Source: an uncultured Pseudobdellovibrionaceae bacterium (GTDB lineage Bacteria; Bdellovibrionota; FAC87; UBA2466). From it: a stretch of 64,000 nucleotides of DNA. The translations under genes were made by a program, and so were the position numbers. The DNA lies in contig CAZTRP010000015.1 of the NCBI GenBank assembly GCA_964616705.1, positions 1,705 through 65,704 of the forward strand, read 5' to 3'. The notes beneath the pieces are model-generated. The model saw only the letters and a list, made by a program, of their open reading frames with translations, had not been told where the DNA came from and did no database searches. Below are positions 3,733 to 54,634 of the stretch, piece by piece (position 1 is the stretch's first letter; each line of letters opens with the position of its first letter).

Positions 3733-4182
3733 ATGGTCGACACTTTACATCCGTCAAAACTCTTCGAACTGGCGAACTTCGTGGCAATGACCTCCTGGAT
3801 CTTGCTTATTTTCTTTCCAGGAAAGCGGGTCACGAAAGCTCTGGTCCGGTCGGGTCTATCACCCCTGCTGCTAGCGGCGGGGTATTGGGCCTCGATGATC
3901 GCTATGATCATTTTTGGCATTCCCGACGGCGCGGGATTTGGCAGCTTTGAGGGAGTGCGTCGATTCTTTACAAGCGAATGGGGCCTTCTGGCCGGCTGGA
4001 TTCATTACCTGTCGTTTGATCTTCTGATTGGCATTTCAGTTCAACAAAGAATAGAGGCAAAGCCCTTCGCCATCCGATTTCTGTGCCTGTTCTTAATTTT
4101 TATGTTTGGCCCGATCGGCTGGAGCCTATCAAAACTGTTTAACCTTAAAAAAGAAGGGAATGCAGATGCTCCAATTATTTAG
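3733..4182 (+). CDS. ABA4-like / DUF4281 membrane protein
   Basis: Four-TM small protein with the LANFVAMTSWILLIFFPG N-terminal motif typical of the DUF4281 family. Confidence 0.55.
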   Translation: MVDTLHPSKLFELANFVAMTSWILLIFFPGKRVTKALVRSGLSPLLLAAGYWASMIAMIIFGIPDGAGFGSFEGVRRFFTSEWGLLAGWIHYLSFDLLIGISVQQRIEAKPFAIRFLCLFLIFMFGPIGWSLSKLFNLKKEGNADAPII

Positions 4183-4972
4183 ACGCGCCGATGGTTTAAC
4201 GTTTTATGCAGGATTCAGTTTACTAGCACTGTCTGCACTCACTCTAGTGGGCGTATTCACCGATTTACGGCTAGTTGCCGGACAAAATATATGGATAAAG
4301 CCATTTAAATTTAGCGTTTCAGTCGCTGTTTTTTTGTTAACTGTCGGTTGGATTATTCAGTACCTACCAAAACGAATTAAATCTAAATTTTCAGTGGCGT
4401 TTGTCTCCATGATGGCGGTGGAAATAGTGACAATCTACATTCAGGCACTCAGAGGGCGGCCATCCCATCACAATTTCTCCACCCCACTTGATGGTTTCTT
4501 GTACGCATCAATGGGTCTCGCCATTGGCATTAACACGATACTGCTTTTAGTACTTTTATTTCAGATAACTAAGAACACCCACAAACTTCCTCTTACCTAC
4601 CTGAGATCGATCCAATACGGGATCTTTCTATCAATAATAGGCAGTTTGATTGGCGTTATTATGTCTGCACACAAGGCACACACGTTCGGTGGAGTCGATG
4701 GCGGACAAGGAATTCCGTTTTTTAATTGGAGTACGCTTTGGGGGGATTTGAGATTTGCGCATTTTATCGGACTTCATGGCCTGCAGATATTAGTCGGCCT
4801 TGGATTTTTACTTAGTTTTACTTTTAGGGAGAAAATCAGCGATTCGCTAAGCCGCCTCGCCGTTACCTTCGTATTCCTACTTTTGTTTGCATTCACGGTC
4901 TCGGCGACAGTTACGGCCATTCGAGGCTTACCGTTTTTTTATCCGCTTGAGCTTCAAAGTCTGCAAAATTAG
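4160..4972 (+). CDS. Polytopic membrane protein, unknown function
   Basis: ORF track protein with about 8 hydrophobic segments. I placed the start at the ATG-CAG-ATG pair at 4160/4166, giving a 23-bp overlap with the upstream gene. Confidence 0.55.
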   Translation: MQMLQLFRRADGLTFYAGFSLLALSALTLVGVFTDLRLVAGQNIWIKPFKFSVSVAVFLLTVGWIIQYLPKRIKSKFSVAFVSMMAVEIVTIYIQALRGRPSHHNFSTPLDGFLYASMGLAIGINTILLLVLLFQITKNTHKLPLTYLRSIQYGIFLSIIGSLIGVIMSAHKAHTFGGVDGGQGIPFFNWSTLWGDLRFAHFIGLHGLQILVGLGFLLSFTFREKISDSLSRLAVTFVFLLLFAFTVSATVTAIRGLPFFYPLELQSLQN

Positions 4973-5606: not shown

Positions 5607-6779
5607 TTATTGCAGAATCTTTTCCTTCAGAAAGCGATGAATCAAAGTAAGTGCGTAGGCAGGACTATAATACCCAACGGCCTTGCCCTGCCCGTCAAAC
5701 TGGGTCCACGGGGTAAGTACATCGTGTCGGGCTCCGGGAATAATATGTAACTCAACGTGAGGCATGCGGATCGCGAGTTCTTTGAGCCACGTAACCGTTT
5801 TTGGTGGTACTTCGGGATCATTTTCTCCAAGCAAGATCAAGGTTGGTTTCCCAAAGAAAGGGTCGGAAGCATCTGCCCAGGTCATTTCATTAACCAGGCC
5901 CGATGCCCAATGAAAAGCGTCCCAGTTGGCTAAAAATGCCCTTCCAGCGAGCAGCTGAAAACGAGCTTCACTCTCTGGACCACCCCCAGCAACCCCGGGG
6001 ATCACGGGACCAATCATAATGATTCCGTCAGCCAGATCTGGATATCTTGAATTCACTTCCCCAAGAAACGCACAACCTGCGCTCTGACAAAGGGGGACTT
6101 GTTTGGATTGAGTGGGTCTTGTTTCTACTAGGTACCTTGATAAGGTCGCCGCCGTCGCAGGAAGCGTGCCCCATAAACCATGGTTCCCGGTGCTTTTTAC
6201 ATGGCCATAAAAATTTCCAGACATTGGCCAGTCAAACGCATCACATGCTACGGTCGCAGGCTTCAACTTCTGCTTTTTGAGAAGTGCTCGCGCTTGCTGA
6301 AAGCCACTTTCGGCAGGATTGGATAAAATCGGGAACCAACGCGTTCCCGTTCCCGCGTGGCTCGTTTCCAAGCTACCGATTCCGCCGATTATCGGCATGT
6401 GAATTTCCGCACGTTCTCGGGATTCAGAATCCGACAAGTAACGAACGGTATTGGCCCAAGGAAGATACTGGGCCAATACATCCCGAAGGACCTTGCCTCT
6501 ATAGGACGTTTGATAAATTTCTTCCGAGGACACTTCTCCAAATGCAAACGCAACGACCGTTTCAGCACAGGATTCTGTTCCAGGACCGGAGCCGTCGGAA
6601 GGAGCCTTGAGCAGTTCGATCCGGCCGCGACTCTCTCGGTGCTTAGTTGCTTCCGATTGGTACCAGGCTTCGAGGAAGGCGCCGTCGTTGTCGCTGCCTT
6701 TGCCCGAAGAGCAAACAAAGGCACAAACGACATACGATAAAAAAACGAGTTTTTCCCACCGGCCTATCATAGGAGGCAC
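5607..6779 (-). CDS. Alpha/beta-hydrolase-fold lipoprotein (esterase/depolymerase-like)
   Basis: Lipoprotein-like N-terminus (…VCSSGKG). C-terminal LILLGENDPEVP...HIIPGARHDV resembles the acid/His end of alpha/beta hydrolases. Confidence 0.55.
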   Translation of the reverse strand: MPPMIGRWEKLVFLSYVVCAFVCSSGKGSDNDGAFLEAWYQSEATKHRESRGRIELLKAPSDGSGPGTESCAETVVAFAFGEVSSEEIYQTSYRGKVLRDVLAQYLPWANTVRYLSDSESRERAEIHMPIIGGIGSLETSHAGTGTRWFPILSNPAESGFQQARALLKKQKLKPATVACDAFDWPMSGNFYGHVKSTGNHGLWGTLPATAATLSRYLVETRPTQSKQVPLCQSAGCAFLGEVNSRYPDLADGIIMIGPVIPGVAGGGPESEARFQLLAGRAFLANWDAFHWASGLVNEMTWADASDPFFGKPTLILLGENDPEVPPKTVTWLKELAIRMPHVELHIIPGARHDVLTPWTQFDGQGKAVGYYSPAYALTLIHRFLKEKILQ

Positions 6780-6940: not shown

Positions 6941-6984
6941 TCCAGATCTGCTATAAGTGCGTCCGCTGAGAAATTGGAGGCCAA

Positions 6985-7494
6985 ATGTTGAATTCTTATT
7001 CCGTTCGCGTTTTTTTCGCACTGATACTACTGACCCAAAATGCATGGGCGGACTATCCGAATTATGAATTTACTGCTGGTGATGAACGCACCACTTTTCT
7101 TGCGGTCTCCTCGGATACGTCAGCGAAGACAGCAAGCCGAATGGCAGCACAGCTTGAATCGTTTCACATTACTAAAGACAAATCTTTTATTGTTTTAGCC
7201 GCTGGCGTTATAAGCCTTCAAAGAGTCTCTGACGGCATGAAAGGCGGAAGAGACCATGGCCTTCGCACATTGCAGCTATACCTGAACAACACGCCAAAAA
7301 ACGCAAGTCTCGCGCGATTGCTGGTGGCCGCAAGATGCAATATCACTTCGTACCACTCAAAGGACAATTCCCTTCTCTACAGTAATACGGAGAAAGAATA
7401 TTCGCATGCTTACCATATAGACAAAGTGATGGTCATTAATGATGGCGATGAGGGCACCGTAGAGCAAGCTGAATACGAAGTTCGTTTCGAATAG
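6985..7494 (+). CDS. Secreted hypothetical protein (169 aa)
   Basis: Signal peptide MLNSYSVRVFFALILLTQNAWA. No recognisable domain. Confidence 0.5.
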   Translation: MLNSYSVRVFFALILLTQNAWADYPNYEFTAGDERTTFLAVSSDTSAKTASRMAAQLESFHITKDKSFIVLAAGVISLQRVSDGMKGGRDHGLRTLQLYLNNTPKNASLARLLVAARCNITSYHSKDNSLLYSNTEKEYSHAYHIDKVMVINDGDEGTVEQAEYEVRFE

Positions 7495-7500
7495 TCCGGT

Positions 7501-8670
7501 ATGTTTTTAAGAACCCTACTTTGTGGGTTTTTCCTCGTCGCGCTACCAGCCAGATCAGCATGGGATGACGAAGCCGCCGACGAACCCACTTGGTACCAAA
7601 GGCTCAGCGCCCAAGAGAAGAACCCGGTCGACCCAACAGACCCAGTGTACGAACACTACACGACGCTCTCCAATTGCACGCCCTACGCTCAGGCCGATAT
7701 GATATTCGACTTGTTGAAACGCAAGTATCCTGCGTCCAAGTTTACCTTGTTCAACGCCGGGAATATGTACTACGGACTGTCATTCATCTTCATGTTTGAG
7801 TCCGAGGGCACCGAGCTTGTGGCTAAAGTGCGTAAATTTCACTCCAGCCATTACCTAGACGATTACTACTTCTGCAAGTCAAGGTGCGGGAAATTTCCTC
7901 GTTACGATAACAACCGACGAACACTTCTCCTGTATGAGAGAGAAGCTACATTTCTAGAGCGAGCGCAGAACGAGCTAAAGAAACATAGAAACAACCTGCC
8001 TAAGCTAAAAGCCGTTCACTGGATGAATTTGGAAGCTCGCGATCCCGAGCCTATTCTTATTATCACTAAAGCCAGCGAAGGGAATTTGCGCCAAACTCGA
8101 AATAAGTTTTTTGGGCCGAATGTACCTACCACGAAGTTATTGAAAGCCTGGACTCAGTTAACTGGTACTTTGGCTGAAATTGAAACCGTCATGCAGATCA
8201 ACCACATCGATCTAAAGACGCAAAATATCTTCGTGCACAGAGAAGCGAACGGAGAACTCACACTCCAACCCGGAGATTGGGGCGCTTACTCCGTCCCCGG
8301 TCAAGAGCTGCTTCTTTTTCATACTCCTGATTGGGCGTCCCGGGAGTCCCTAACGGGCAACTTAAGCCCTAAGAAGGATTCCGTCAGAGCGCTGCAACTC
8401 ATTCTACTGGAAATGGCAACCGGAGAAACTGTGGAGAAGATGAGAAGCGGCGCGTTTGGCACCGAGTGTTTGAAACAGCTCCAGTTGGTGTACTCTGATA
8501 ATACCTTTGGTTTTTGGTACCTTGAGAATATTCCTGCGCCATTAAGGGACAAGCTCGATCCAACCCTGCTGCCATTGATTGAAGGCAGTTACCCCGACGT
8601 TCTTTCTTTGCATGAAGCAGGAAAGAAAACGCTCACGCGGACCCTCAGACGGGAAAAACGAAATCCCTAG
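7501..8670 (+). CDS. Secreted eukaryotic-like protein-kinase-fold protein
   Basis: Signal peptide MFLRTLLCGFFLVALPARSAW. Kinase subdomain motifs appear in order: LVAKVRK (beta3 Lys), INHIDLKTQNIFV (HRDLKxxN catalytic loop), GDWG (DFG-like), TPDWASRE (APE-like), LQLILLEMATGE (subdomain IX/X). Confidence 0.65.
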   Translation: MFLRTLLCGFFLVALPARSAWDDEAADEPTWYQRLSAQEKNPVDPTDPVYEHYTTLSNCTPYAQADMIFDLLKRKYPASKFTLFNAGNMYYGLSFIFMFESEGTELVAKVRKFHSSHYLDDYYFCKSRCGKFPRYDNNRRTLLLYEREATFLERAQNELKKHRNNLPKLKAVHWMNLEARDPEPILIITKASEGNLRQTRNKFFGPNVPTTKLLKAWTQLTGTLAEIETVMQINHIDLKTQNIFVHREANGELTLQPGDWGAYSVPGQELLLFHTPDWASRESLTGNLSPKKDSVRALQLILLEMATGETVEKMRSGAFGTECLKQLQLVYSDNTFGFWYLENIPAPLRDKLDPTLLPLIEGSYPDVLSLHEAGKKTLTRTLRREKRNP

Positions 8671-8679
8671 TTCACTGAA

Positions 8680-9336
8680 CTAGCGCCCTATCAAACGCAT
8701 GAGAAGGACACGGCATGCAGACGGTGCACGGAGCTCTTCAATGTTTACATCAAGTCGATCACCCTCGGAATTCGAGCCGAGCTCGACAGAATTCAGGGTG
8801 CTTCCATCTGGGGTTTCTGAAGCAACGACTGCTTTATAGTGATAGGGAGCTAGGTTCGTGTCCGAATGCAATCGCACGTTCTGCATGATCGCTTCTAGCT
8901 TCAAGGCCTGCTCTTTAGAAAAATATACTGCTTTCGCTTCCAGATCAGCCCCTAGCTCATCGCCGTCAGGCACAAAACGAAACATCTTGCCGAAAACATA
9001 CTTGGAACCAACGTTGTGAATGGCACTGAGAGCAGAATAAAGACCAAGTATATAAGGTAGCCCCGCTTTAGCCGCCGCAGGATCGAAAGACATGATTACA
9101 GACACCCCACCGACCAAAAGGCCCGGCTTGTAATTCAACTGAGTAAGCACGAATTCGCCTTGCCTCTCGCTTCCATCGAGCAATCGATAGGTCGCCGGAA
9201 TCGAGTAACGAGTTTCGATCGGAAGCAATCTATCGGGAAGGTCTTGCTTTGTGGGTTCCGCATGCAACGTGGCAGCACAAGTAACTAAAAAGTAGATACT
9301 GAATACTCCAGATAAAGTTAAAATCTTGATTAGCAC
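8680..9336 (-). CDS. Secreted hypothetical protein (218 aa)
   Basis: Signal peptide MLIKILTLSGVFSIYFLVTCAATLHA. No recognisable domain. Confidence 0.5.
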   Translation of the reverse strand: MLIKILTLSGVFSIYFLVTCAATLHAEPTKQDLPDRLLPIETRYSIPATYRLLDGSERQGEFVLTQLNYKPGLLVGGVSVIMSFDPAAAKAGLPYILGLYSALSAIHNVGSKYVFGKMFRFVPDGDELGADLEAKAVYFSKEQALKLEAIMQNVRLHSDTNLAPYHYKAVVASETPDGSTLNSVELGSNSEGDRLDVNIEELRAPSACRVLLMRLIGR

Positions 9337-9430: not shown

Positions 9431-10240
9431 ATGGTCTATCGAAGCTACCCTCCCCCGCCACAGCTCGAGCCTTATGTCGATTGCTTTTGGAGCCTTGAAC
9501 TCCCCGTGACTCAAAGCGAAATTCGCGCCGAAAGAGTACTACCGGACGGAAAAACGGAACTCCTTTTCCACTACGGAGACTGTTTCGAAAACAGCTGTGA
9601 CGGCAAATCTTTCAATGAACAAGCACGAGGACTGTTTGCCGGTCAGCTGAAAACATTTACACTTCTGAAACCGAAAGGGAATATTGGATTGGTTGCTGTG
9701 CGATTCAAACCCGCCGGCGCGGCTCAGTTTTTCGAATTTCCACTATCGGAGATCACGGATCAAGTGATGAGTCTCGATAACTTACTTGGACTTGAAGGAC
9801 GAGCGCTTCAGGAACGCATTCTGAATGCAAAAGACAACACGCTTCGCTTTGGGGTTCTTACACAGTATCTGGTAAATCGCCTTGGGCGGGGACCGGAAGA
9901 CGTTTTGGTTCGAGCTGCCGTTCGGTTGATTGGGAATGGGGAAACCAACTATGATTCTCTGGCCAGAAAAATCGGTTTGAGCAAGCGGCAAATTGAACGA
10001 GTGTTTAAGACCAATGTGGGAATTAGCCCGGCCATGCTCTCGCGTATTTTCAGATTTCAAAAGTTTTTGGCCCTAGCCAAACGCGAACCGGCAATGAAGC
10101 TAATCGACGTGTCGCAAGAGTGCGGATACTACGATCAATCGCACTTCATAAAAGAATTTAAAGCTTTCTCTGGCGTATCGCCCTCCTTCTTTCTCGCCGA
10201 AAGCCACGAAATGTCCGATTGCTTCACCGCGCCAGAGTAA
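9431..10240 (+). CDS. AraC-family transcriptional regulator
   Basis: C-terminal double HTH (…LARKIGLSKRQIERVFK…VSQECGYYDQSHFIKEFKAFSGVSP). Confidence 0.8.
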   Translation: MVYRSYPPPPQLEPYVDCFWSLELPVTQSEIRAERVLPDGKTELLFHYGDCFENSCDGKSFNEQARGLFAGQLKTFTLLKPKGNIGLVAVRFKPAGAAQFFEFPLSEITDQVMSLDNLLGLEGRALQERILNAKDNTLRFGVLTQYLVNRLGRGPEDVLVRAAVRLIGNGETNYDSLARKIGLSKRQIERVFKTNVGISPAMLSRIFRFQKFLALAKREPAMKLIDVSQECGYYDQSHFIKEFKAFSGVSPSFFLAESHEMSDCFTAPE

Positions 10241-10377
10241 TGTCGTTTTTTTACAATGCCGTCGCTGATTAAACGCTTAAGCTCGTACTGATAGGTGCTT
10301 CAAATAAAGCACGGGCAAATAAACCAGGGCTTAGCAAACTAAGTGCGCTAGCCATGAAACTACGAGCGGAGATAGGC

Positions 10378-10845
10378 ATGTCAAAATCAAAATTTTTGTT
10401 AGTTCTTGTTCTTTTTGCACTTCAAGCAGGGACCATTACGGCCGCCGGAATCCAGGACTCTCTTGAAATACTAAATGGTTGTTGGCAGAGCGACTCCAAA
10501 GGAACAATCGTTGAGGAACGTTGGGGTAGTGTGGACGGCGGGTTAATGCTTGGTACGGCAAAGACAGTGGTGGCCGGCCGTGCCGTTGAATTCGAATTTC
10601 TAAAGATAGAAACTTCCAAAAAAGGGACTATCTATACTCCGTTTATCAACGGCGTCGCCGCCGCCCCCTTTAAGATGAACGAGACCTCGTCAACTACCGA
10701 CAAACTTGTGTTTGAAAATCCGAGCAACAAATTCCCGAAAACGATCATCTACCTCAAAAATGGCTCGAATATGGAAATCTCCCTCTCGGGCGATAGCAGT
10801 GACAAGGTCGAGTACACATTGGCCGAGATCAACTGCTCACTCTAA
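10378..10845 (+). CDS. Secreted hypothetical protein
   Basis: Start moved to MSKSKFLLVLVLFALQAGTITAAG, a clean signal peptide. No domain recognised. Confidence 0.5.
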   Translation: MSKSKFLLVLVLFALQAGTITAAGIQDSLEILNGCWQSDSKGTIVEERWGSVDGGLMLGTAKTVVAGRAVEFEFLKIETSKKGTIYTPFINGVAAAPFKMNETSSTTDKLVFENPSNKFPKTIIYLKNGSNMEISLSGDSSDKVEYTLAEINCSL

Positions 10846-10928
10846 TGCCAATTCCTAGGGGGGCACTTATACACCGCGTCTTGCCACGCATCTGGTTCAG
10901 ACAAATACTTCCTGCCACTGGGGGAAAT

Positions 10929-11330
10929 ATGAAAACTATTATTGGACTGAGTTTGATGGTGGCTATCTCTGCGCCTGCGCTGGCGGGCAAGTATGGCGGC
11001 CCACTCTTGGTAAAAGCGACTGGAAAAATCTCAAACAACGGGATTGCTCACACTTGCGAAATATACCCAAAGCACCCCGACGTTGCGGGCATCGATTTAC
11101 ATACTTTAATTAATACCGCCAGTACGGCGAAGGTGAGTAATGCGTTGCACGTTGTGGCGCAGGTACCCTCTGAAGAGTACTACGCGTACCGCGTAGTTTC
11201 TCTTGGAGGAACGTCCACTGCCGTAAGAGCTGAAAGAGTTCTCCTTCGACGGGACGACAGTTCGCTACAAGAGCGAGAAGGTAAAGAGAGTCAGGAACTC
11301 ATTCAGCTTGTCGATAAAATTTGCAAATAG
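10929..11330 (+). CDS. Secreted hypothetical protein
   Basis: Start moved to MKTIIGLSLMVAISAPALAG, a signal peptide preceded by GGGGGAAAT. No domain recognised. Confidence 0.5.
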   Translation: MKTIIGLSLMVAISAPALAGKYGGPLLVKATGKISNNGIAHTCEIYPKHPDVAGIDLHTLINTASTAKVSNALHVVAQVPSEEYYAYRVVSLGGTSTAVRAERVLLRRDDSSLQEREGKESQELIQLVDKICK

Positions 11331-18130: not shown

Positions 18131-19849
18131 TTGCCGATAACACATGGAGTTCTGACCCATTTTTTCAATAGGGAGAATCAGTTGGGTAAAGGGGCACACA
18201 AGGTATCGGCATCGCGGCTTCTAGTTTCACTCTTGGAGGGTGAACGAAAGGAGGTTGCCGTCATATTGGTATACGGCGTCGGCGTGGGTATTCTTTCCTT
18301 GGCCGTACCCATCGGCATCCAGACGCTAGTCAATACCGTGACGTTTGGCGCGTTCAGCCAGCCGGTGCTTTTCCTTGTACTTGCCGTGTTTGCCGGGCTT
18401 TCGATTGCGGCGGTTTTGCGAGGAATTCAAGTTGTTGTTGTAGAACAACTTCAGAAAAGATTCTTCGGTCAGTTAGCATTGGAACTTTGCTATAGAATTC
18501 CCCGAATTCGTTTAGATGAGGTTACAAAATCCAAGTTTCCGGAGCTAGTGAATCGTTTCTTTGATGTACTAACAGTTCAGAAAAGCACAGCCATGTTGCT
18601 CTTGGAGGGGTTTGCGCTCGCCCTACAGATTACGTTCGGCCTTATCCTCCTCGCGTTCTACCATTGGTTTCTTTTAGCTTTTGCGATCTTATTGGTAGCA
18701 GCGATCGGCGCCGTACTTTTTGCTTTCGGACGTGGCGCGATAGAAACGAGCATAGAAGAATCCGTTCAGAAGTACCACGTCGCTGCGTGGCTTGAGGACC
18801 TTGCCTCACGTCCACTCCTTTTCCGATCCGCTCAAGCTAGAAAAATGGCGCTGGAACGGGCAGACACAATACTCGGAAAATATCTGAGAGCGAGATCGGC
18901 ACATTTCAACATCTTGATGCGGCAGGTGGCGGGATCGCTGGCCCTACAAGCGATTGGAAGCTCTGCTTTACTGGGAATCGGAGCCCTGCTTGTGGTTAAA
19001 AACCAACTAACTCTCGGACAGCTCGTCGCGGCAGAAATAGTTGTCACCACTGCCCTAGGCTCGCTTGCCAAGTTTCAGAAACACCTGGAAGCGTACTACG
19101 ACCTCATTGCGGCACTAGATAAGATCAACAGCCTACTTTCCCTTCCTCTGGAACGACTTGAGGGAGAATCGATTCCCTTGATGACTGGTCCAGCAGCGAT
19201 AGAAATTAGAGGGCTATGCTTTCGTTACGCTGAAGGCCCGTTGGTTTTTGATAATCTTGATTTCGCAGCGGCACCCGGATCAAGAATTGCTCTTTTGGGG
19301 AGCAACGCTTCAGGAAAGACAACTCTGGTCGACTTACTCTTCGGCATCAAAGAACCTCAAAGCGGTACAGTCATTATCGATGGAGTGGACTACCGAGATC
19401 TCTCTCCAGAACTGCTACGCGAACACGTCTGCCTAGTTCGTGGGCTTGAATTCCTGCCCGATTCAATAATCGAGAATGTCCGCATGGGGCGAGAAGATCT
19501 AAGCCTAGACCAAGTTCGAGAAGCGTTACGCCGAGTGGGTCTATTGGAGGATATTGTGGGCCTTTCAAACGGCCTTCAAACGAAACTTGGCGGAGACGGT
19601 GCCCCGCTTTCTGTCGCGCAAGGTCATGCCCTTGTTCTTGCTCGAGCCATCATCGGCTCGCCGAGACTCCTCTTGGTCGATGAGACGTTGGACGAACTGG
19701 ACGACGATGCTCGCGATGCTGCCCTCAAAGTTCTGCTAGATCCCGACGCGCCATGGACACTGGTTCTATCGACAAACAGCGAATCACTGGCACGCCGGCT
19801 CCACAAGATTCTTTCTCTCGATGCACTCCGAGAGAGGAGAAGCGCCTAA
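18131..19849 (+). CDS. ABC exporter, fused TMD-NBD, PrtD/AprD-type (type I secretion ATPase) with degenerate NBD
   Basis: Six-TM N-terminal domain. Walker A GSNASGKTT and Walker B LLLVDET are present. The signature is LSVAQ instead of LSGGQ. The H-loop position reads TLVLSTNSES, with no His. No N-terminal C39/CLD domain. Putative TTG start. Confidence 0.7.
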   Translation: MPITHGVLTHFFNRENQLGKGAHKVSASRLLVSLLEGERKEVAVILVYGVGVGILSLAVPIGIQTLVNTVTFGAFSQPVLFLVLAVFAGLSIAAVLRGIQVVVVEQLQKRFFGQLALELCYRIPRIRLDEVTKSKFPELVNRFFDVLTVQKSTAMLLLEGFALALQITFGLILLAFYHWFLLAFAILLVAAIGAVLFAFGRGAIETSIEESVQKYHVAAWLEDLASRPLLFRSAQARKMALERADTILGKYLRARSAHFNILMRQVAGSLALQAIGSSALLGIGALLVVKNQLTLGQLVAAEIVVTTALGSLAKFQKHLEAYYDLIAALDKINSLLSLPLERLEGESIPLMTGPAAIEIRGLCFRYAEGPLVFDNLDFAAAPGSRIALLGSNASGKTTLVDLLFGIKEPQSGTVIIDGVDYRDLSPELLREHVCLVRGLEFLPDSIIENVRMGREDLSLDQVREALRRVGLLEDIVGLSNGLQTKLGGDGAPLSVAQGHALVLARAIIGSPRLLLVDETLDELDDDARDAALKVLLDPDAPWTLVLSTNSESLARRLHKILSLDALRERRSA

Positions 19850-20895
19850 TGCCACTGCGAAGACACAATTTCTATGTTTATCGAGTACAGCCAGCTCCTA
19901 AATCGCTCACCGCGGTAACACCCCGAAGGAACTACCCTGCCTTCTTCTGGGGGGTTCTGCTTTTATTCATGTTCTGTTTTATTTCACTTACCTTTCTCCC
20001 TTGGCAGCAGACCGCGACGGGCTACGGCCGAGTCATCGCTTATGCACCTAATGACCGGCAGCAGGAAATCAGCGCTCCGGTCGATGGCCGTATCCAAAAG
20101 TGGCACGTTTTTGAAGGATCAAAAGTATCGGCCGGCGATTTGATAGTGGAACTAACCGACAATGATCCTGAAATCCTCAAACGGCTTAGAGTCGAGCGAG
20201 ATGCTCTGTTCAAAAGATCGGCCGCAGCCGAAGCCGGTGTCCAGACAGCAAAACTGAACTTAGACCGACAACAGACTCTTTTTGAAAAGGGCCTAAGCGC
20301 AAAACGCTCGGTCGAGCAGGCGAATCTGGAATATACGAAGTACTTGATCGACGAAGCGAATGCCTCAGCAGAATTAGCTCGTATGGATGTGAGACTCGCC
20401 CGTCAACTGACCCAGTCGGTGCGTGCGCCCGTTGCGGGAACAATATTGCGAGTTGTCGCAGGCCAAGGAGCGCAAATCGTAAAGGCAGGCCAGATGCTTG
20501 CCTTGATAGTTCCAAGTACCGCCTCGCGAGCAGTTGAACTTTGGATAAATGGAAACGACATGCCGCTTATTCGCGAAGGCGCGCATGTGAGACTACAGTT
20601 CGAAGGGTGGCCAGCGCTTCAGTTTAGCGGTTGGCCCGGAGCTTCGGTGGGAACTTTCGGAGGCAACGTCACTCTTATCGATGCAAGCGACAATGGGTTG
20701 GGAAAATTCAGGGTATTAATCTCCCCCTCCCCCAAGGAGCCATGGCCCGACGGTCAGTATTTGCTTCAAGGCGTACGCGCCCAAGGCTGGGTCCTGTTAA
20801 GCGAAGTTCGCCTTGGATTCGAGCTCTGGCGAAAATTCAACGGTTTCCCACCGTCCCTGCCTGCCAATACCAAGAATGAGCGGGAGTCAAAATGA
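19849..20895 (+). CDS. HlyD-family membrane fusion protein
   Basis: Start moved to the ATG overlapping the ABC gene stop (TAATG). N-terminal TM followed by a coiled-coil and beta-barrel pattern typical of HlyD. Confidence 0.75.
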   Translation: MPLRRHNFYVYRVQPAPKSLTAVTPRRNYPAFFWGVLLLFMFCFISLTFLPWQQTATGYGRVIAYAPNDRQQEISAPVDGRIQKWHVFEGSKVSAGDLIVELTDNDPEILKRLRVERDALFKRSAAAEAGVQTAKLNLDRQQTLFEKGLSAKRSVEQANLEYTKYLIDEANASAELARMDVRLARQLTQSVRAPVAGTILRVVAGQGAQIVKAGQMLALIVPSTASRAVELWINGNDMPLIREGAHVRLQFEGWPALQFSGWPGASVGTFGGNVTLIDASDNGLGKFRVLISPSPKEPWPDGQYLLQGVRAQGWVLLSEVRLGFELWRKFNGFPPSLPANTKNERESK

Positions 20896-22274
20896 CCCGA
20901 CTCTTTCAGGGCTTGATTCTTCTGCTAGTAGTTTCGTTCTCCAAAGTCTTCGGGGCGGAAACACTACAGCTTGAAGAAGTCTTAAAGGCCGTGGAAGAAC
21001 GTTTTCCGCTGATTGGAGCGGCCAGAAAGGACGCGGAAGCGGCCCGTGGTGATGTCCGCTCGTCGGAAGGTGCTTTTGATATCCAATGGAAGACTCGTGC
21101 AACATACGCTGCCGTTGGCTTTTATCAAAATGAGCGCATTGATTCGGTCATCGAGCAACCAACAACGCTATGGGGTACTACCGTCTTTGGTGGTTATCGA
21201 CTCGGCGCCGGAAAATTTGCTGATTACGACGGAAAACTCGAAACAAATCCCGGTGGAGAACTTCGGCTTGGAGTGAGTGTCCCCGTACTCAGAGATGGTC
21301 CAACCGATCGAAGACGAGCAAACATCCGTCGCGCGAACCTGGGAGTGGACGCTGCGGAATCGCAGTTCGAACAGCAGCGGCTAGAGTCCATAAGGAATGC
21401 ATGTAACCGCTATTGGGATTGGGTTGCAGCGGGAAAGCGCCTGTCAATCTACCGAACCGTTTTGAAGATTGCCGAGGAACGCGACTTGGGGCTAGCGGAT
21501 CGCGTTCGGCACGGTGATTTACCCGAATTCGAAAGAAGAGATAACGAACGCGCCATTCTTCAACGTCGATCTCAGCTGGTTGCAGCAGAGAGAAGTTTTC
21601 AGCAGGCGGCCATCGAACTTTCTCTCTATTTCAGGGACCAAGCCAGCGAGCCTCTGCTTCTAACCGAGGAAAGGCTTCCCGCGACGATTCCCGAGCCGAC
21701 GGCCACCGAAGTTCCGCAAAAGACTATCGCGGATGCGCTAATTAGGCGCCCCGAACTCGCAAGATTGTCCGCGATGAAGTCCCAAAATGAGGTCGAAAGG
21801 GCTCTTGCGACAAATCAGAGCGGACCGAAGTTCGACTTGCAGTTACAAGCCATCCAAAACTTGCAACAGGGAGATCCGGCTCGTAATGGCACCCAAGTAG
21901 AGGCAGGCGTACTACTTGAAATCCCGCTCCAAGCAAATGTTGCCCGAGGGCGAGAGGACAATGCCGTAGCGACTGCGGCGCGATTTGAACTTCAAGAACG
22001 CTTTCTGAAGGATCGAGTGGGAGCGGAGGTACGGGACGCCAAGTCTGCACTGGATGCGGCCCTAATGCGATTTCAAGTGATTCGAAAGGAAGTCGAACTC
22101 GCTAGGAAGATGGAGCAGGGAGAGAGAGAACGCTTTAATCAAGGAGACAGCACGCTTTTGTTTGTGAATCTTCGAGAGCAGGCTACCGTTGATGCCGCTA
22201 TCCGAGAACTCGAAGCCCTCGCCGATTACCGAAAGAGTCTCGCCACACTCCGAGCCGCTCTCGCGGACTTCTGA
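20892..22274 (+). CDS. TolC-family outer-membrane efflux protein
   Basis: Signal peptide. Two repeated coiled-coil halves typical of TolC. ATGA overlap with the upstream HlyD gene. Confidence 0.8.
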   Translation: MTRLFQGLILLLVVSFSKVFGAETLQLEEVLKAVEERFPLIGAARKDAEAARGDVRSSEGAFDIQWKTRATYAAVGFYQNERIDSVIEQPTTLWGTTVFGGYRLGAGKFADYDGKLETNPGGELRLGVSVPVLRDGPTDRRRANIRRANLGVDAAESQFEQQRLESIRNACNRYWDWVAAGKRLSIYRTVLKIAEERDLGLADRVRHGDLPEFERRDNERAILQRRSQLVAAERSFQQAAIELSLYFRDQASEPLLLTEERLPATIPEPTATEVPQKTIADALIRRPELARLSAMKSQNEVERALATNQSGPKFDLQLQAIQNLQQGDPARNGTQVEAGVLLEIPLQANVARGREDNAVATAARFELQERFLKDRVGAEVRDAKSALDAALMRFQVIRKEVELARKMEQGERERFNQGDSTLLFVNLREQATVDAAIRELEALADYRKSLATLRAALADF

Positions 22275-48177: not shown

Positions 48178-50931
48178 ATGGAGTTGTTCGACTTTTTCTC
48201 TCGTGCAAATGCGGAATACATTGAGCAGCTGTACCAACAGTACCAGCAGAACCCCGAAGCCGTCGATGAGCGGTGGGCGGTGTTCTTCGCGGGTTTTGAA
48301 GCCGGAAACTCCGGCGGTTCAGTACTGGAAAAGCTGCTTTCATCAAAATCGGGCTCCCCGGCCGAAGGGGTAAACCACTTAGTCCACTCCTACCGAGAGC
48401 TCGGGCATCGCATTGCCAATCTGAATCCTTTGGGCGGGAATAGAGAAGACCATCCACTTCTCGCGCTTTCTGAATTTGGATTTAATGCTACCGAAGACTT
48501 GAACCGCACTGTTGGCAACGGCGGGTTTACTGGCCCCACGGGACCCACTCTGTCGGAACTCTTGAATAGTCTTAAAACTACGTACTGCGGCACGTTTGCC
48601 GTGGAGTACATGGATATTTCCGATAAGGCCCAGCGAGAGTGGCTTCAGGCGCGCATGGAGCCCTGTTTAAATCATCCACCACTTTCTGCCGACCAAAAGA
48701 AGCACTTACTCACCAAGCTTGCTGCCGCAGAGGGATTTGAAACCTTCCTGCATACCAAATACGTCGGAGCCAAACGATTTTCCCTTCAAGGGGCGGAGTC
48801 TGTCATCCCCTTACTCGACGCGCTTGTATCCGAAGCGGGTGAACTCGGTGCCGAAGAAATCCTTATGGGGATGGCTCATCGTGGGCGACTCAACGTTTTG
48901 ACTAATATTTTTGGAAAACCTTACGAACTTGTTTTGCGTGAGTTCGAAGGAACCGCCGTGCTTCCGAATGAGGAAGGCGACGGCGACGTTAAATACCACC
49001 TTGGCTATACAAACCGCATCACTTCTCCTAGCGGAAACCCACTCCAGGTAAGCCTCGTCCCGAATCCGAGTCACCTTGAAGTTGTAGACCCGGTTGTAGT
49101 GGGGATGTGCAAAGCAAAACAAGATGCAAAGCAAGATCTCGATGGAAGCCGGGTTATTCCCATCTTGATACACGGCGAGGCAGCTTTTACTGGGCAAGGG
49201 GTAGTTCCAGAAACGATCAGCCTCTCCGAGCTCGACGCGTACCGCACAGGCGGCACCATCCACCTGATCATCAATAACCAAGTCGGCTTTACCGCAACCG
49301 CGGCGCAAACTCGTTTTACACCGTATCCGACGGACGTCGCCAAGATGATCCAAGCCCCCATCTTCCATGTGAACGGCGATGATCCGGAAGCGGTAGTGCA
49401 CGCAGCCAGACTCGCCATGCAGTTTAGGCAGGCATTTAAGGTGGATGTCTTTATCGACCTTTGGTGTTACCGACGCTACGGACACAATGAAACAGACGAT
49501 CCATCCTTCACTCAGCCAGTGATGTATCGCAAAATCGATAGCCTTAGCTCGGTAAGAACTCTTTACGCAGCTAAACTCATCGAACAAGGCGTTTTGACCC
49601 AAGAAGAGTCAGAAGCAATCAACGCACAATTCAAGGAACTCTTGGAGCAAGCGCAAGTCAGCGCGCGAGGAGAGCGCCGTCCTGGTTCGATCATGGGACA
49701 CCGCGATCTCTGGGAAGGGTTTGAACGAGCCAAAGGTGACTGGTCGGCAGACACACGCGTGGATCGAGAAACCCTATTAAAGATTACCGCCCTAGCGACT
49801 CAAGTGCCCGACGGTTTTTCCGTGAACCGAAAACTTGTGAAGCTCCTTGAAACGCGACGCCAAATGGCGAAGGGCGACAAAAATGCAGATTGGGGCTGTG
49901 CCGAAATGTGGGCTTTTGGAAGCCTACTCCAGGAAGGCATTCCCGTACGGCTGATGGGGCAGGATTGTGAACGCGGGACTTTTAGTCACCGCCACGCGGT
50001 TCTTCACGATTCAGAAAACGGGGAAGAATGCACCCCACTCGCGCAGTTTCCTGCTCGCTTTCAAGTTAAGAACTCGATGCTTTCAGAATTGGCGGTTCTC
50101 GGATTTGAATATGGCTACAGCCTTGCAGATCCTCGAAACCTCGTCATTTGGGAAGCTCAGTTCGGAGACTTCGTGAATGGCGCGCAAGCGGTTTTGGATC
50201 AGTTTTTGGTGAGTGGCGAATCGAAATGGGATCGAATGAGCGGCTTAGTGCTACTTCTGCCCCATGGCTACGAGGGTCAAGGCCCGGAGCACTCAAGCGC
50301 CCGGCTTGAGCGATTCTTACAAAGCTGCGCCGAGAATAATATTCAGGTTTGTTACCCTTCAGTTCCGTCGCAATACTTTCACTTGCTTCGCAGGCAGATG
50401 CATCGAAAGTTCCGCAAGCCTCTTGTACTCATGATGCCCAAGAGCATGTTGCGCGATGAACGTTCAAGTTCAAGTCTAGAAGACTTCTCGGACTCTGGAC
50501 TCCAGCTCGTCATCGACGACAAAAAGGCAGATCCAGCACAGATTCAGCGAGTTCTATTTTGCACTGGGAAAGTCTATTTCGGCCTAGCGGCAGCAAAAGA
50601 GGAAACCGGCGCTCAGAACATTGCGATTGTGCGAGTGGAGCAACTTTATCCATTCCCGAAATCGGAACTAGAAAAAGTGATAGCGAAATACCCAAGTGCC
50701 ACCGAGTTTTTCTGGGTTCAGGAAGAACCCATGAATATGGGCTCCTGGTCGTTTATAGCCCCTCTTCTGGGAACAATCCTTCCGGGCGGGGCTAAGCTTG
50801 AGTACCGAGGCAGAACGCCAGCGGCAAGCCCGGCCCATGGTTTTTACAAAGTTCACTTACAAGAAGAGCAAGAATTCATCAAAAGCGCACTCGCCTCGAA
50901 GAGTGACGCAAAGGAGCGACATGGCAACTAA
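48178..50931 (+). CDS. sucA: 2-oxoglutarate dehydrogenase E1 component
   Basis: 917 aa with the characteristic N-terminal FLSGANAAYIEQLY-like region, ThDP-binding core, and C-terminal motifs of OGDH E1. Confidence 0.9.
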
Positions 50932-52174: not shown

Positions 52175-54634
52175 TCACCAGCCAATGACCTGGCTTGGGA
52201 AATACACATTTGAAAGAGTGTTATTGCCGACCTGTCCCCAGTTGTTGCGGCCCCAGCAGTACAAGACAGATTGCTTCATAGCGCATGAGCTATCCTGTCC
52301 TTCCTTGGATACCAGCTCGACGTTTGCGTTCATTCCGTAAACTAAGACCGGTACGTTGCTGCCAATTGTGTTTCCAATTCCTAACTGGCCATCTGAGTTA
52401 TTACCCCAGCAATACAGAGCACCGGATTTGACAGCGCAGGTGTGGTCCGTACCACCGCCGATTGCTGTAACCCCGATATCCATTCCCAAAGGCACAACAG
52501 GCACCATTCGGTTTGCGACAGAACCATCACCCAAAACACCTTGAGCACCCTGACCCCAGCACTTCATCGTGGTGTTCTGCAAAGCGCACGTGCGATAAGA
52601 CAGAGCAGCAACCGCGCTCACGCCTCCACTAAACGCTGGAATCGCGTAGGGTGCATTTCGATTTTGCGTGCTTCCATCTCCAACTTGCCCTTGGGCGTTG
52701 TATCCCCAGCACTTCAACCCGCCATATTGAACCGCGCAGGTCGTACTTCGACTTGTTACAGTTTGGTTTGAAATCGATACGGAACTGACGCCCGACTCCA
52801 ATCCAAAAATCGGCACGGGTGTGAGCGCTGTCCCAGTCGACCCGTCTCCCACCTGCCCGTACGCATTAAAGCCCCAACATTTCAGCCCACCGTTCTGGAT
52901 TGCGCAGGTGGTATAACCGCCAGCCGCTACCGAAGTAACGCCTGAACTCATACCGACGACTGCTACAGGACTCAGGCGCAAGGCAGCAGTACCATCGCCG
53001 AGATTTCCGTAAGGGTTGTAGCCCCAACAAAAGAGTCCACCGTTTTTAATTGCACACCCATGAAGCAAGCCCGCTGCGACGGAAGTAACACCGGTGTCCA
53101 TGCCAACCACTCGGGTGGGAACGCTCTTCGTTGCAACAGTGCCGTTACCCAACCCACCCAGCGTATTCTGACCCCAACAATAAGCGGCTCCGGCTCGTAC
53201 CGCACACTGAAATGACTCACCTGAAGCAACTATGTCGTAGCTGCCGGAGGAAATCCCTGTAAACGTCATCGATGAGAGGTAATTTGCGCCGTAGCTATCT
53301 TGGAAAGTTAAATTGAAACTCGCATTATAGACGCCCGCGACTGAGGGATTGAAAACAAAACCAAGAGAGCAGGAAGATCCTGCCGAAAGAGAAAGCTGCT
53401 GGGTTGAGTACCAGGGACAGGTATCTGACTGAACTTTAAAAACGGCATTTGAAACTTGAACCGAAATCAGGCGCGCTTGCCCAGGCCCCAAGTTATTGAT
53501 TACCACTGGAATAACCGATGAAGTGGTTCCAGGAGGAACTGTTCCAAAGTTCAGTCCCGTGCTTGACGATGAAATTGAAACCGCTGCACCGACCTGCGCG
53601 GTTCCTTGCAAAGAAACTACGGCAGTCCGTGAAGACTGCGAGGTAGTAGAATACGCAATCGATAGGCTTGCGCTTCTTAGTCCGGTCGAGCCGGCAGAAG
53701 CGTCAAACTTCACCGTAACCGTACATGAGTCACCGCCGGCTAGAGTTCCAGCGCAAGCATCGGTGAGAATAGTAAAGTCAGAAGCACCTACAATGGTGGC
53801 CGCTTGAAGTGACATGCTAAGTGACCCGGAGTTGGTTGCTACGATACTACGTGTCACTGGGCTTGATGAAGAAACGGAAGTACCGAACTGCACCATCGTA
53901 CCGGGGAAACTCAGGACACCTTCGTTGCCCACTTGAGCTACGGCGTTACAAGTTGCTACACGAGCTGAGTTAGCAGCATCCTGAATATCGAAGGCAAAAA
54001 CGTGCTGCCCTTGAGCAGACAAACTAATTTGTAGATTCACGCCCGAAGCAACCGCGCTAGGAACCGGAGTAGAAGAGCTAAGAGTCGCGCCTCCACCTGA
54101 CATATAGCGATAGGCAGTTACCCTAAATGTGGACGCTCCAGAAGCCGAAATGGCCACGTTTGCCGTAACGGTCGGCGAGGCAGAACTTATCGCAAGCGAC
54201 GAAGGCGTAATGGCCGTGGCACAGCTAATCGCCCCTGCCCCTGCATTGACTACGTTGAACTGCACCATCGCCGTCGAAACGCGTGTGGGGAAGTTCACAT
54301 CCTGAACTTGAACCGTCTCAATCACAGATTGGGCCGAGCTATAGGTGTGCGAGTAGTACAAAGGTGAAGCCTGGGAGAAAGTAGTGCCTTGAGCCGAGAA
54401 GGTGTACTGACCCGAGCAACCAGAAGCTTCCAAACGAAAAAATACTTCCTGACCAACTACGGCATCGGCCGAGCTCACCCGAGCAAGGCTCACGGACAGC
54501 GGACTCGCACAAGTCGGATTCACAGTGCTATTAGAAGTCGTGCTTAAGCTAGACCGACGAACCGCGCAGGATGAAAGTAGTCCCATTGCAAGAAGTGCAA
54601 ATCCGGCTAAACGAAAAGTTTTGGAAGGCAGCAT
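52175..54634 (-). CDS. Secreted RCC1-repeat (alpha-tubulin-suppressor-like) protein with N-terminal Ig-like/Ser-Thr-rich region
   Basis: Signal peptide. The C-terminal half has seven or more GxGxxGQLGDG-type repeats (CWGxNxxGQVGDGS...). The N-terminal half is Ser/Thr/Ala-rich and beta-like. Confidence 0.75.
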   Translation of the reverse strand: MLPSKTFRLAGFALLAMGLLSSCAVRRSSLSTTSNSTVNPTCASPLSVSLARVSSADAVVGQEVFFRLEASGCSGQYTFSAQGTTFSQASPLYYSHTYSSAQSVIETVQVQDVNFPTRVSTAMVQFNVVNAGAGAISCATAITPSSLAISSASPTVTANVAISASGASTFRVTAYRYMSGGGATLSSSTPVPSAVASGVNLQISLSAQGQHVFAFDIQDAANSARVATCNAVAQVGNEGVLSFPGTMVQFGTSVSSSSPVTRSIVATNSGSLSMSLQAATIVGASDFTILTDACAGTLAGGDSCTVTVKFDASAGSTGLRSASLSIAYSTTSQSSRTAVVSLQGTAQVGAAVSISSSSTGLNFGTVPPGTTSSVIPVVINNLGPGQARLISVQVSNAVFKVQSDTCPWYSTQQLSLSAGSSCSLGFVFNPSVAGVYNASFNLTFQDSYGANYLSSMTFTGISSGSYDIVASGESFQCAVRAGAAYCWGQNTLGGLGNGTVATKSVPTRVVGMDTGVTSVAAGLLHGCAIKNGGLFCWGYNPYGNLGDGTAALRLSPVAVVGMSSGVTSVAAGGYTTCAIQNGGLKCWGFNAYGQVGDGSTGTALTPVPIFGLESGVSSVSISNQTVTSRSTTCAVQYGGLKCWGYNAQGQVGDGSTQNRNAPYAIPAFSGGVSAVAALSYRTCALQNTTMKCWGQGAQGVLGDGSVANRMVPVVPLGMDIGVTAIGGGTDHTCAVKSGALYCWGNNSDGQLGIGNTIGSNVPVLVYGMNANVELVSKEGQDSSCAMKQSVLYCWGRNNWGQVGNNTLSNVYFPSQVIGW

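Follow-up and report, generated by a model that had tools for sequence, protein, structure and literature searches.

A rare Hanks-type kinase with a predicted Sec signal peptide in an uncultured Pseudobdellovibrionaceae bacterium

Introduction

Hanks-type kinases of bacteria are regarded as signalling enzymes of the cytoplasm. In PknB-like kinases, such as PknB of Mycobacterium tuberculosis and Stk1/PknB of Staphylococcus aureus, an N-terminal kinase domain in the cytoplasm is joined through a membrane segment to a sensor on the outside, a layout that the generic kinases compared in this study share. Here we report on a gene with a different layout in a 64,000-nucleotide stretch of DNA (hereafter, the window) from an uncultured Pseudobdellovibrionaceae bacterium (GenBank assembly GCA_964616705.1, contig CAZTRP010000015.1). 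Its 389-amino-acid product, referred to below as w389, is a predicted kinase that starts with a putative Sec signal peptide; the products of the two flanking genes, of 169 and 218 amino acids, are referred to as w169 and w218.

Kinases that act outside the cytosol of the producing cell have been described in other settings. Fam20C and VLK/PKDCC, kinases of the eukaryotic secretory pathway, have a kinase fold, carry a signal sequence and work in places other than the cytosol. Toxoplasma ROP kinases and Plasmodium FIKK kinases combine an export signal with a canonical kinase domain and are active in the cytosol of another cell. Bacteria, too, have kinase-fold proteins whose site of action is another cell, among them YpkA/YopO, NleH/OspG, the LegK family and Coxiella CstK. 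To our knowledge, type III/IV effector kinases lack a Sec signal peptide and rely on dedicated injection systems. A literature search returned no description of a Sec-exported or periplasmic bacterial Hanks-type kinase, although its coverage was incomplete and it is weak evidence of absence.

Results

Kinase core of w389

The first-pass annotation of this DNA had read w389 as a complete Hanks-type kinase core with the catalytic Asp, Lys and Asn, and motif order, profile homology and fold all bore this out. In Pfam, w389 matched Pkinase (PF00069) with 21.7 bits (E 1.5e-4), residues 168–313 lying on profile positions 57–198. Pkinase was the only Pfam match at E up to 1; of the families that the annotation had named as worth searching, it alone was recovered, below its gathering score, and Fam20/FJ, CotH, HipA and SelO gave no match. 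NCBIfam contained no match for w389. Readings of w389 as a defence-system, phage or plasmid protein were dropped because the best PADLOC defence-system kinase model reached only E 0.013 (12 bits), which is not significant, and because neither PHROGs nor tblastn of phage and plasmid collections gave a match.

To a profile of w389 and its seven full-length relatives (alignment A1, 8 sequences), the best match among PDB sequences was ULK1 (E 3e-21), aligned over profile positions 71–326, which span the full kinase domain with both lobes. The S. aureus kinase 4eqm (E 2e-20) came next, followed by PKR, NEK1, TTK and others; 2578 sequences were matched at E up to 0.001, and those among the matches listed were protein kinases throughout. 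Pkinase was also matched by 21/21 sequences of a second alignment (A2: 17 family members including w389, and four generic kinases), with a best E of 7e-54 among the 20 sequences besides w389. Weaker Pfam matches in A2 were to APH (14/21) and to Kdo kinase families (6/21), with Pkinase far ahead.

The AlphaFold2 model of w389 (predicted local distance difference test [pLDDT] 82.7, predicted template modelling score [pTM] 0.81) had a bilobal protein-kinase fold, and the best matches in a fold search were generic kinases. The possibility raised in the first-pass annotation that the HxD and DWG residues lie outside a kinase fold was not borne out, as the model and the fold comparison placed both within it. 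The C-lobe of w389, with the activation segment, alphaF and later helices, aligned with protein kinases; small-molecule kinases are without this part. Because the Pkinase match (E 1.5e-4), the PDB profile match (E 3e-21) and the confidence of the model agree, the motifs are not a chance pattern. Identity to kinases outside the small family of w389 was only about 15–20% or less.

The motifs stood in canonical order (K109, E148, catalytic loop, DWG, T275-P276, E282, G308). H235, D237, N242, D259, G261 and T275 were invariant in A2; K239 was conserved in at least 90% of A2 and invariant in the eight A1 sequences. A catalytic-loop Lys with a GT/TP motif is a Ser/Thr-type signature. These results indicate, at the level of sequence and model, that w389 has a full Hanks-type kinase core with a Ser/Thr-type catalytic loop. 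The kinase is non-RD, with Ile instead of Arg ahead of the catalytic Asp (HID). Its activation segment has T275-P276 and E282 and ends in SRE, not APE, and at the Gly-rich loop the family consensus is only G-G-E-S. DWG is common to w389, two relatives (P0001 and P0002) and the Gemmataceae-type clade described below.

Outside these motifs, the 22-residue insert of w389 (residues 112–134) was missing from all 20 aligned relatives, with pLDDT below 50 at residues 118–134, and a family-specific beta-hairpin (residues 324–341) was found in the C-lobe. Residues 1–60, which include the linker, had pLDDT 40–54; the linkers of homologues are likewise Pro-rich or acidic. C323 is conserved between w389, P0001 and P0002. 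The protein as a whole would be a single soluble chain of about 42 kDa.

Family and distribution

Exhaustive phmmer with w389 against 1.84 billion representative proteins returned 12 matches at E up to 0.001. Seven of these were full-length relatives of 320–388 amino acids (P0001, P0002, P0005, P0006, P0008, P0009 and P0010), with identity to w389 of at most 31% and a best E of 2e-23; the remaining matches included P0003, which carries kinase domains in tandem, and P0007, a repeat protein matched by chance. The relatives that bear a signal peptide were only 23–31% identical to w389, and the wider family about 20–30%. When the A1 profile was run against a collection of 5.8 billion proteins, about 14 more clusters, which form a tight clade, scored 155–369 bits, one of them named as a protein of a Gemmataceae metagenome-assembled genome (MAG), and generic kinases followed at 84 bits or less. 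Judged by these searches, the family of w389 is very rare.

The Gemmataceae-type clade (P0009 and P0013–P0025; e.g., loci L092 3907–4869 and L093 6001–6975) is without a signal peptide. Its members have Arg in place of the beta3 Lys (IARV) and HGD instead of HRD/HID, and keep DWG; their gene neighbourhoods are not conserved. The clade may represent an offshoot that is cytoplasmic and whose activity is possibly weak.

Other searches gave no additional relatives. A word-indexed homology search with w389 alone returned nothing and did not recover w389 itself either, no relative came up when a single genome from each GTDB species was scanned with w389 alone, and a pattern scan of metagenome contigs with alignment A3 gave 278 pattern matches, of which 0 were confirmed. 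The exact w389 protein was encoded on 12 contigs that had been assembled from several sequencing runs, and gene order was kept on them; four of these were compared, and their DNA was 100% identical to the window, with no population variation. The 90%-identity cluster of w389 had only one other member, a 52-amino-acid fragment. All seven window proteins that were looked up were in the collection, and six, SucA included, were singletons at 90% identity. The best match of SucA (48178–50931) among 185,579 GTDB species representatives was 57% identical and came from a Latescibacteria-labelled MAG; the next matches (47–56%) were from Binatia, a 'delta proteobacterium' MAG, Eisenbacteria and Bdellovibrionia. 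The source organism appears to belong to a deep, poorly sampled lineage.

Predicted export signal of w389

N-termini were classified with one fixed heuristic rule, which looks for a positive n-region, a hydrophobic h-region of about 7–15 residues and small residues at −3 and −1. In w389, the predicted signal peptidase I cut falls between ARS and AWD (Ser19 and Ala20), and the sequence after it is AWDDEAADE. No 19-residue window of the protein exceeded a Kyte-Doolittle value of 1.6, indicating that there is no membrane segment, and with 11 residues the h-region is not long enough to cross a membrane or to anchor the protein stably. The charge is +1 ahead of the h-region and net −3 over the 20 residues behind it. 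By the positive-inside rule, the difference in flanking charge sets which side is translocated; because of the −3 behind the h-region against the +1 before it, the C-terminal part of w389 would be translocated even if the peptide stayed uncleaved. A lipoprotein reading was rejected, as there is no lipobox (C8 lies inside the h-region, and Leu is at −1), and a Tat reading was rejected for want of a twin arginine. The Sec-type cleavable signal peptide proposed in the first-pass annotation is thus upheld by the short core, the ARS-A site, the lack of a membrane segment and the conservation described below; the alternative of an uncleaved anchor with a cytoplasmic kinase domain is opposed by the short core and the charge layout.

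As controls, none of about 20 clearly cytoplasmic window proteins (SucA, SucB, FadD, aldehyde dehydrogenases, aspartokinase and regulators) was flagged by the heuristic, and the TolC-like protein and the trypsin-like secreted protease of the window were both flagged. Among the relatives, P0002, P0005, P0008 and P0010 had signal-peptide-like N-termini as annotated. P0001 and P0006 had no signal peptide as called; their genes are open upstream, and when read from an upstream in-frame ATG or GTG they start with the textbook signal peptides MRNVFRRSMARAITGMILLMVGLSTPARA (followed by ES) and MERVHSLHSLRIHAALWTAFLFLSPAFA (followed by GE). In total, 7/7 members outside the Gemmataceae-type clade (w389 included) and 0/10 inside it were signal-peptide-like, compared with 1/21 generic kinases, the exception having a multi-span N-terminal region. 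Because of this difference between the 7/7 members and the generic kinases, export is, on the predictions, a conserved trait of the family. A neighbour-joining tree built from 253 core columns, without bootstrap, placed the signal-peptide-less clade nested among signal-peptide-bearing members; this nesting suggests that the signal peptide is ancestral and was lost once, and is indicative only. Separately, P0001, P0005, P0006 (from its upstream start), P0008 and P0010 (loci L001, L007, L091, L009 and L090) have a single Cys 7–13 residues past the predicted cut. This Cys has no lipobox context, is the sole Cys of P0010 and is missing from w389 and P0002.

The window carries genes for a TolC-like OEP, an HlyD and an AsmA-family protein, and because of these markers the host is taken to be a diderm. 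Sec export would then carry w389 at least into the periplasm. Taking the N-terminal features and their conservation together, we regard actual cleavage and export of w389 as very probable.

Locus layout

The coordinates of the features are listed in Table 1. Reading frames were scored by codon-usage log-odds, with 14 confidently assigned window genes as the training set, and the annotated frame scored top for w169, w389 and w218, as it did for the first 66 codons of w389 taken separately. The ATG of w389 is the earliest start codon downstream of an in-frame stop, follows the w169 stop on the same strand after 6 nucleotides, and is not itself preceded by a Shine-Dalgarno sequence. Because the two genes are co-oriented with this 6-nucleotide gap, w169 and w389 are probably co-transcribed as an operon, and the GGAGG ahead of w169 is likely the ribosome entry site for both. 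Given this GGAGG, the short gap and the lack of a Shine-Dalgarno sequence at w389, the two genes also look translationally coupled. The w218 gene is convergent with w389 and divergent from the AraC-family gene over a 94-bp intergenic region. The palindrome between w389 and w218 is a possible candidate for a weak bidirectional terminator; terminator-like sites were not commoner in the region than by chance (5 observed compared with 4.6 in shuffled sequences). No Rfam families and no mobile-element-like repeats were found at 5–12 kb of the window.

Table 1. Features of the w389 locus, with positions counted from the first letter of the window
Feature	Position	Strand	Remarks
alpha/beta-hydrolase gene	5607-6779	-	signal-peptide-like N-terminus; divergent from w169; opens the run of genes for predicted exported proteins
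Shine-Dalgarno GGAGG	6976-6980	+	4 nucleotides ahead of the w169 ATG; read from sequence
w169 gene	6985-7494	+	169-amino-acid open reading frame; orphan with signal-peptide-like N-terminus; best codon score in annotated frame
w389 gene	7501-8670	+	389-amino-acid open reading frame; predicted Hanks-type, non-RD, Ser/Thr-type kinase with N-terminal export signal
predicted Sec signal peptide, residues 1-19	7501-7557	+	n-region MFLR, h-region TLLCGFFLVAL (11 residues), c-region PARS
acidic, Pro-rich linker, residues 20-60	7558-7680	+	low confidence; joins signal peptide to kinase domain
kinase catalytic domain, both lobes	7726-8595	+	about residues 76-365
K109 codon, beta3 ATP-anchoring Lys (VAK)	7825-7827	+	alignment A2; profile alignment to ULK1 VAVK
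insert found only in w389, residues 112-134	7834-7902	+	with C125 and C129; between beta3 and alphaC
E148 codon, alphaC Glu	7942-7944	+	conserved in at least 90% of A2
catalytic loop H235-I-D237-L-K239-T-Q-N242	8203-8226	+	aligned to HRDxKxxN of Aurora A and DCLK1
D259-W-G261, Mg-binding DFG equivalent	8275-8283	+	alignment
palindrome CTAGTTC-ACT-GAACTAG	8667-8683	both	17 nucleotides, perfect 7-bp stem; contains stop codons of w389 and w218
w218 gene	8680-9336	-	218-amino-acid open reading frame, GTG start; orphan with hydrophobic N-terminus
AraC-family regulator gene	9431-10240	+	269 amino acids; Pfam DUF6597 (89.6 bits) and HTH_18 (60.5 bits)
DUF6265 protein gene	10354-10845	+	small, predicted exported
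orphan gene	10845-11330	+	161 amino acids; small, predicted exported; signal peptide when read from internal Met29

Flanking orphans and predicted exported neighbours

Both neighbours of w389 had been described in the first-pass annotation as signal-peptide proteins with no recognisable domain, followed by an AraC regulator. This description stood: both were positive by the heuristic and had no Pfam or NCBIfam match, and the regulator carried DUF6597 and HTH_18 domains. The w169 N-terminus is signal-peptide-like (MLNSYSVRVFFALILLTQNAWA, then DY, with AWA ahead of the predicted cut). That of w218 has a longer hydrophobic segment with a possible cut between LHA and EP, and could be either a signal peptide or a signal anchor. 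PHROGs and PADLOC likewise held no match for w169 or w218, nothing among PDB sequences was better than E 0.3, and no paralogues were found in the window. A concatenated query of the two mature proteins against the 5.8-billion-protein collection returned w218 itself as the sole hit. The single-sequence AlphaFold model of mature w169 was unusable (pLDDT 41.7).

Between 5607 and 11330, six of seven consecutive genes were flagged as exported (the alpha/beta-hydrolase, w169, the kinase, w218, the DUF6265 protein and the 161-amino-acid orphan read from Met29; the AraC regulator was unflagged), compared with 7/33 elsewhere in the window. By these flags, the segment looks like a small island of secreted proteins. 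At the P0006 locus (L091 4494–20089, on a 322-kb JGI contig, the longest one), the kinase gene adjoins one for a 531-amino-acid serpin and lies among genes for large signal-peptide proteins of 1191, 1203, 522 and 434 amino acids with no family match. A neighbourhood of predicted exported proteins thus recurs in the window and at this locus. The three-gene secreted-effector locus put forward as a possibility in the first-pass annotation was not supported, since only w169 is arranged like an operon partner of w389, whereas w218 is convergent and shares the 94-bp divergent promoter region with the AraC gene.

Other features of the window

The segment 11936–17921 encodes a LysR regulator, a beta-carbonic anhydrase, a bestrophin-type channel, an 859-amino-acid signal-peptide-like protein with no family match and, on the opposite strand, a second beta-carbonic anhydrase; it could be a CO2/bicarbonate handling module. 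At 18131–22274 there is a type I secretion-like operon with an LssB/HlyB-type ABC transporter, an HlyD-family adaptor and a TolC-like outer-membrane protein, and with no obvious substrate gene. An 819-amino-acid protein encoded at 52175–54634 (minus strand) has a signal-peptide/lipoprotein-like start, choice-of-anchor D and HYDIN/ASH-type Ig-like domains, and RCC1 repeats, a predicted architecture that is eukaryote-like in its repeats. At 3733–4972, the open reading frame of an ABA4-like membrane protein (3733–4182) overlaps the next membrane-protein frame, taken at its longest (TTG start at 4106), by 77 nucleotides; this TTG start is probably wrong, because gene callers on metagenome contigs start that gene later.

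Discussion

A tentative reading of these results, to which we give somewhat less than an even chance, is that w389 is a Sec-dependent effector kinase that is released and acts in another cell. Under this reading, the precursor would cross the inner membrane of a diderm via Sec and be cleaved near Ser19-Ala20, giving a mature protein of about 370 amino acids in which the kinase domain stands between a disordered linker, acidic and rich in Pro, and a C-terminal helix. The mature protein would be catalytically competent and work outside the producer's cytoplasm. It would get out of the cell in vesicles or through some second step, and would phosphorylate proteins of another cell (prey, host or competitor), where ATP is plentiful. 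The co-translated, exported w169 might be a partner of w389, such as a chaperone, an inhibitor or an adaptor. We favour action in another cell because kinases require ATP, and we know of no ATP supply or ATP-generating system in the periplasm. Taken as a separate step, action of w389 on another cell is possible but somewhat doubtful.

Several observations weigh against this reading. The export call comes from a home-made heuristic and not from a trained predictor, and two of the seven signal peptides (those of P0001 and P0006) rest on re-annotated start codons. On its own, w389 falls short of the Pkinase gathering score (21.7 compared with 31.7 bits). Its Gly-rich loop (AGNMYYGLS) is degenerate, carries a 4-residue insert and departs from GxGxxG, and Ser294 occupies the alphaF Asp column, Asp293 being the residue just before it; because of this loop and the shifted Asp, activity is not guaranteed. 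Overall, catalytic activity of w389 is probable in our judgement. No route over the outer membrane is indicated in the window, the only secretion genes there being the type I-like ABC/HlyD/OEP set, and sets of this kind do not take Sec substrates. The window moreover looks like part of an ordinary chromosome with full central metabolism, and the genome is not that of a reduced endosymbiont. The co-occurrence of the three genes, which the first-pass annotation had suggested checking, was not found: the flanking proteins have no homologue, and the DNA around seven homologous kinases, mostly on short contigs, carries no relative of w169, w218 or the AraC regulator. Because these relatives are absent from all seven loci, the w169/w389/w218 trio is, as judged from gene content, not a conserved module.

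The main rival is a periplasmic or surface kinase. In that case, w389 would be exported, retained in the periplasm or at the outer membrane, and phosphorylate the cell's own envelope proteins or glycans, as a bacterial equivalent of the secretory-pathway kinases of eukaryotes. The signal-peptide evidence serves this explanation equally well, the protein has no recognisable signal for crossing the outer membrane, and the small exported neighbours could be substrates, whereas no candidate substrate is conserved beside the homologues and the literature search yielded no bacterial periplasmic Hanks-type kinase. A kinase held there would also work in a compartment that is established to be without an ATP-generating system. 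It would draw on ATP in transit through the periplasm, and such transit does occur in E. coli, in which periplasmic apyrase abolishes ATP release (PMC6335424). On balance, we consider retention with action on the cell's own envelope unlikely. It is distinctly unlikely that the family as a whole represents real extracytoplasmic protein phosphorylation, with Sec-exported Hanks kinases active in the periplasm, at the cell surface or in vesicles, as a prokaryotic equivalent of Fam20C/VLK-type kinases; if true, this would imply that ATP, or else some other phosphate donor, is available for use beyond the inner membrane.

Two other explanations are less likely. If the N-terminus of w389 were a wrong start or a short tether and not a working export signal, w389 would be an ordinary soluble cytoplasmic Hanks kinase, as bacterial Hanks kinases normally are; the closely related Gemmataceae-type clade is indeed without a signal peptide, and an in-frame Met67 lies just ahead of the structured domain. 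The ATG at 7501 has no Shine-Dalgarno sequence, but neither has Met67, and over the first 66 codons the annotated frame is the top-scoring one; 7501 is also the first start after the upstream stop and lies 6 nucleotides from the w169 stop, which is typical of coupling. Chance or mis-annotation would not yield signal-peptide-like N-termini in 7/7 members at 23–31% identity, and the charge layout would translocate the C-terminal side even without cleavage, which makes a cytoplasmic w389 very improbable. Alternatively, w389 might be exported without being a protein phosphotransferase, for example as a pseudokinase, a nucleotide-binding scaffold, an enzyme of other chemistry or a kinase of small-molecule or lipid substrates. 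The degenerate Gly-rich loop, the shifted alphaF Asp and the 22-residue insert beside alphaC would fit this explanation, as would the replacement of the beta3 Lys in relatives (Arg in the Gemmataceae-type clade, Ser in P0001) and the weaker APH and Kdo kinase matches in A2. However, the H, D, N and D-x-G residues are invariant, and the loop Lys nearly so, at only about 20–30% identity, the C-lobe aligns with protein kinases in a part that small-molecule kinases lack, and Pkinase is by far the best Pfam family, with no SelO, Fam20, CotH or HipA match. Export of a protein without phosphotransferase activity is accordingly quite improbable.

In fold and chemistry, w389 is, as far as sequence and model go, a member of the Hanks-type superfamily and not a new category. 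It differs from PknB-like kinases in that a signal peptide stands ahead of the kinase domain, no membrane segment or sensor domain follows, and the active site is non-RD (HID), with DWG for DFG and a degenerate Gly-rich loop. Classification of w389 as a PknB-like membrane kinase was rejected, as its hydrophobic segment precedes the kinase domain and no segment or domain comes after it. For the periplasmic explanation, Fam20C and VLK offer a functional analogy, being kinases with a signal sequence; w389 has no sequence relationship to them (no Fam20/FJ Pfam match at E up to 1), and they work in the ATP-importing Golgi lumen, whereas the periplasm is without such a known supply. Type III/IV effector kinases were not among the best structural matches of w389, and no injection system was seen in the window. 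For w389 as an effector, the apicomplexan exported kinases would be the closest analogy, although they are eukaryotic, use eukaryotic secretory organelles or export elements, and have no specific sequence or structural affinity to w389. The rare family described here pairs every catalytic residue with a Sec-type signal peptide ahead of the kinase domain. This points either to Sec-dependent effector kinases in uncultivated diderms or to phosphorylation outside the inner membrane, and either reading, if true, would widen the range of places in which bacterial kinases are expected to signal.

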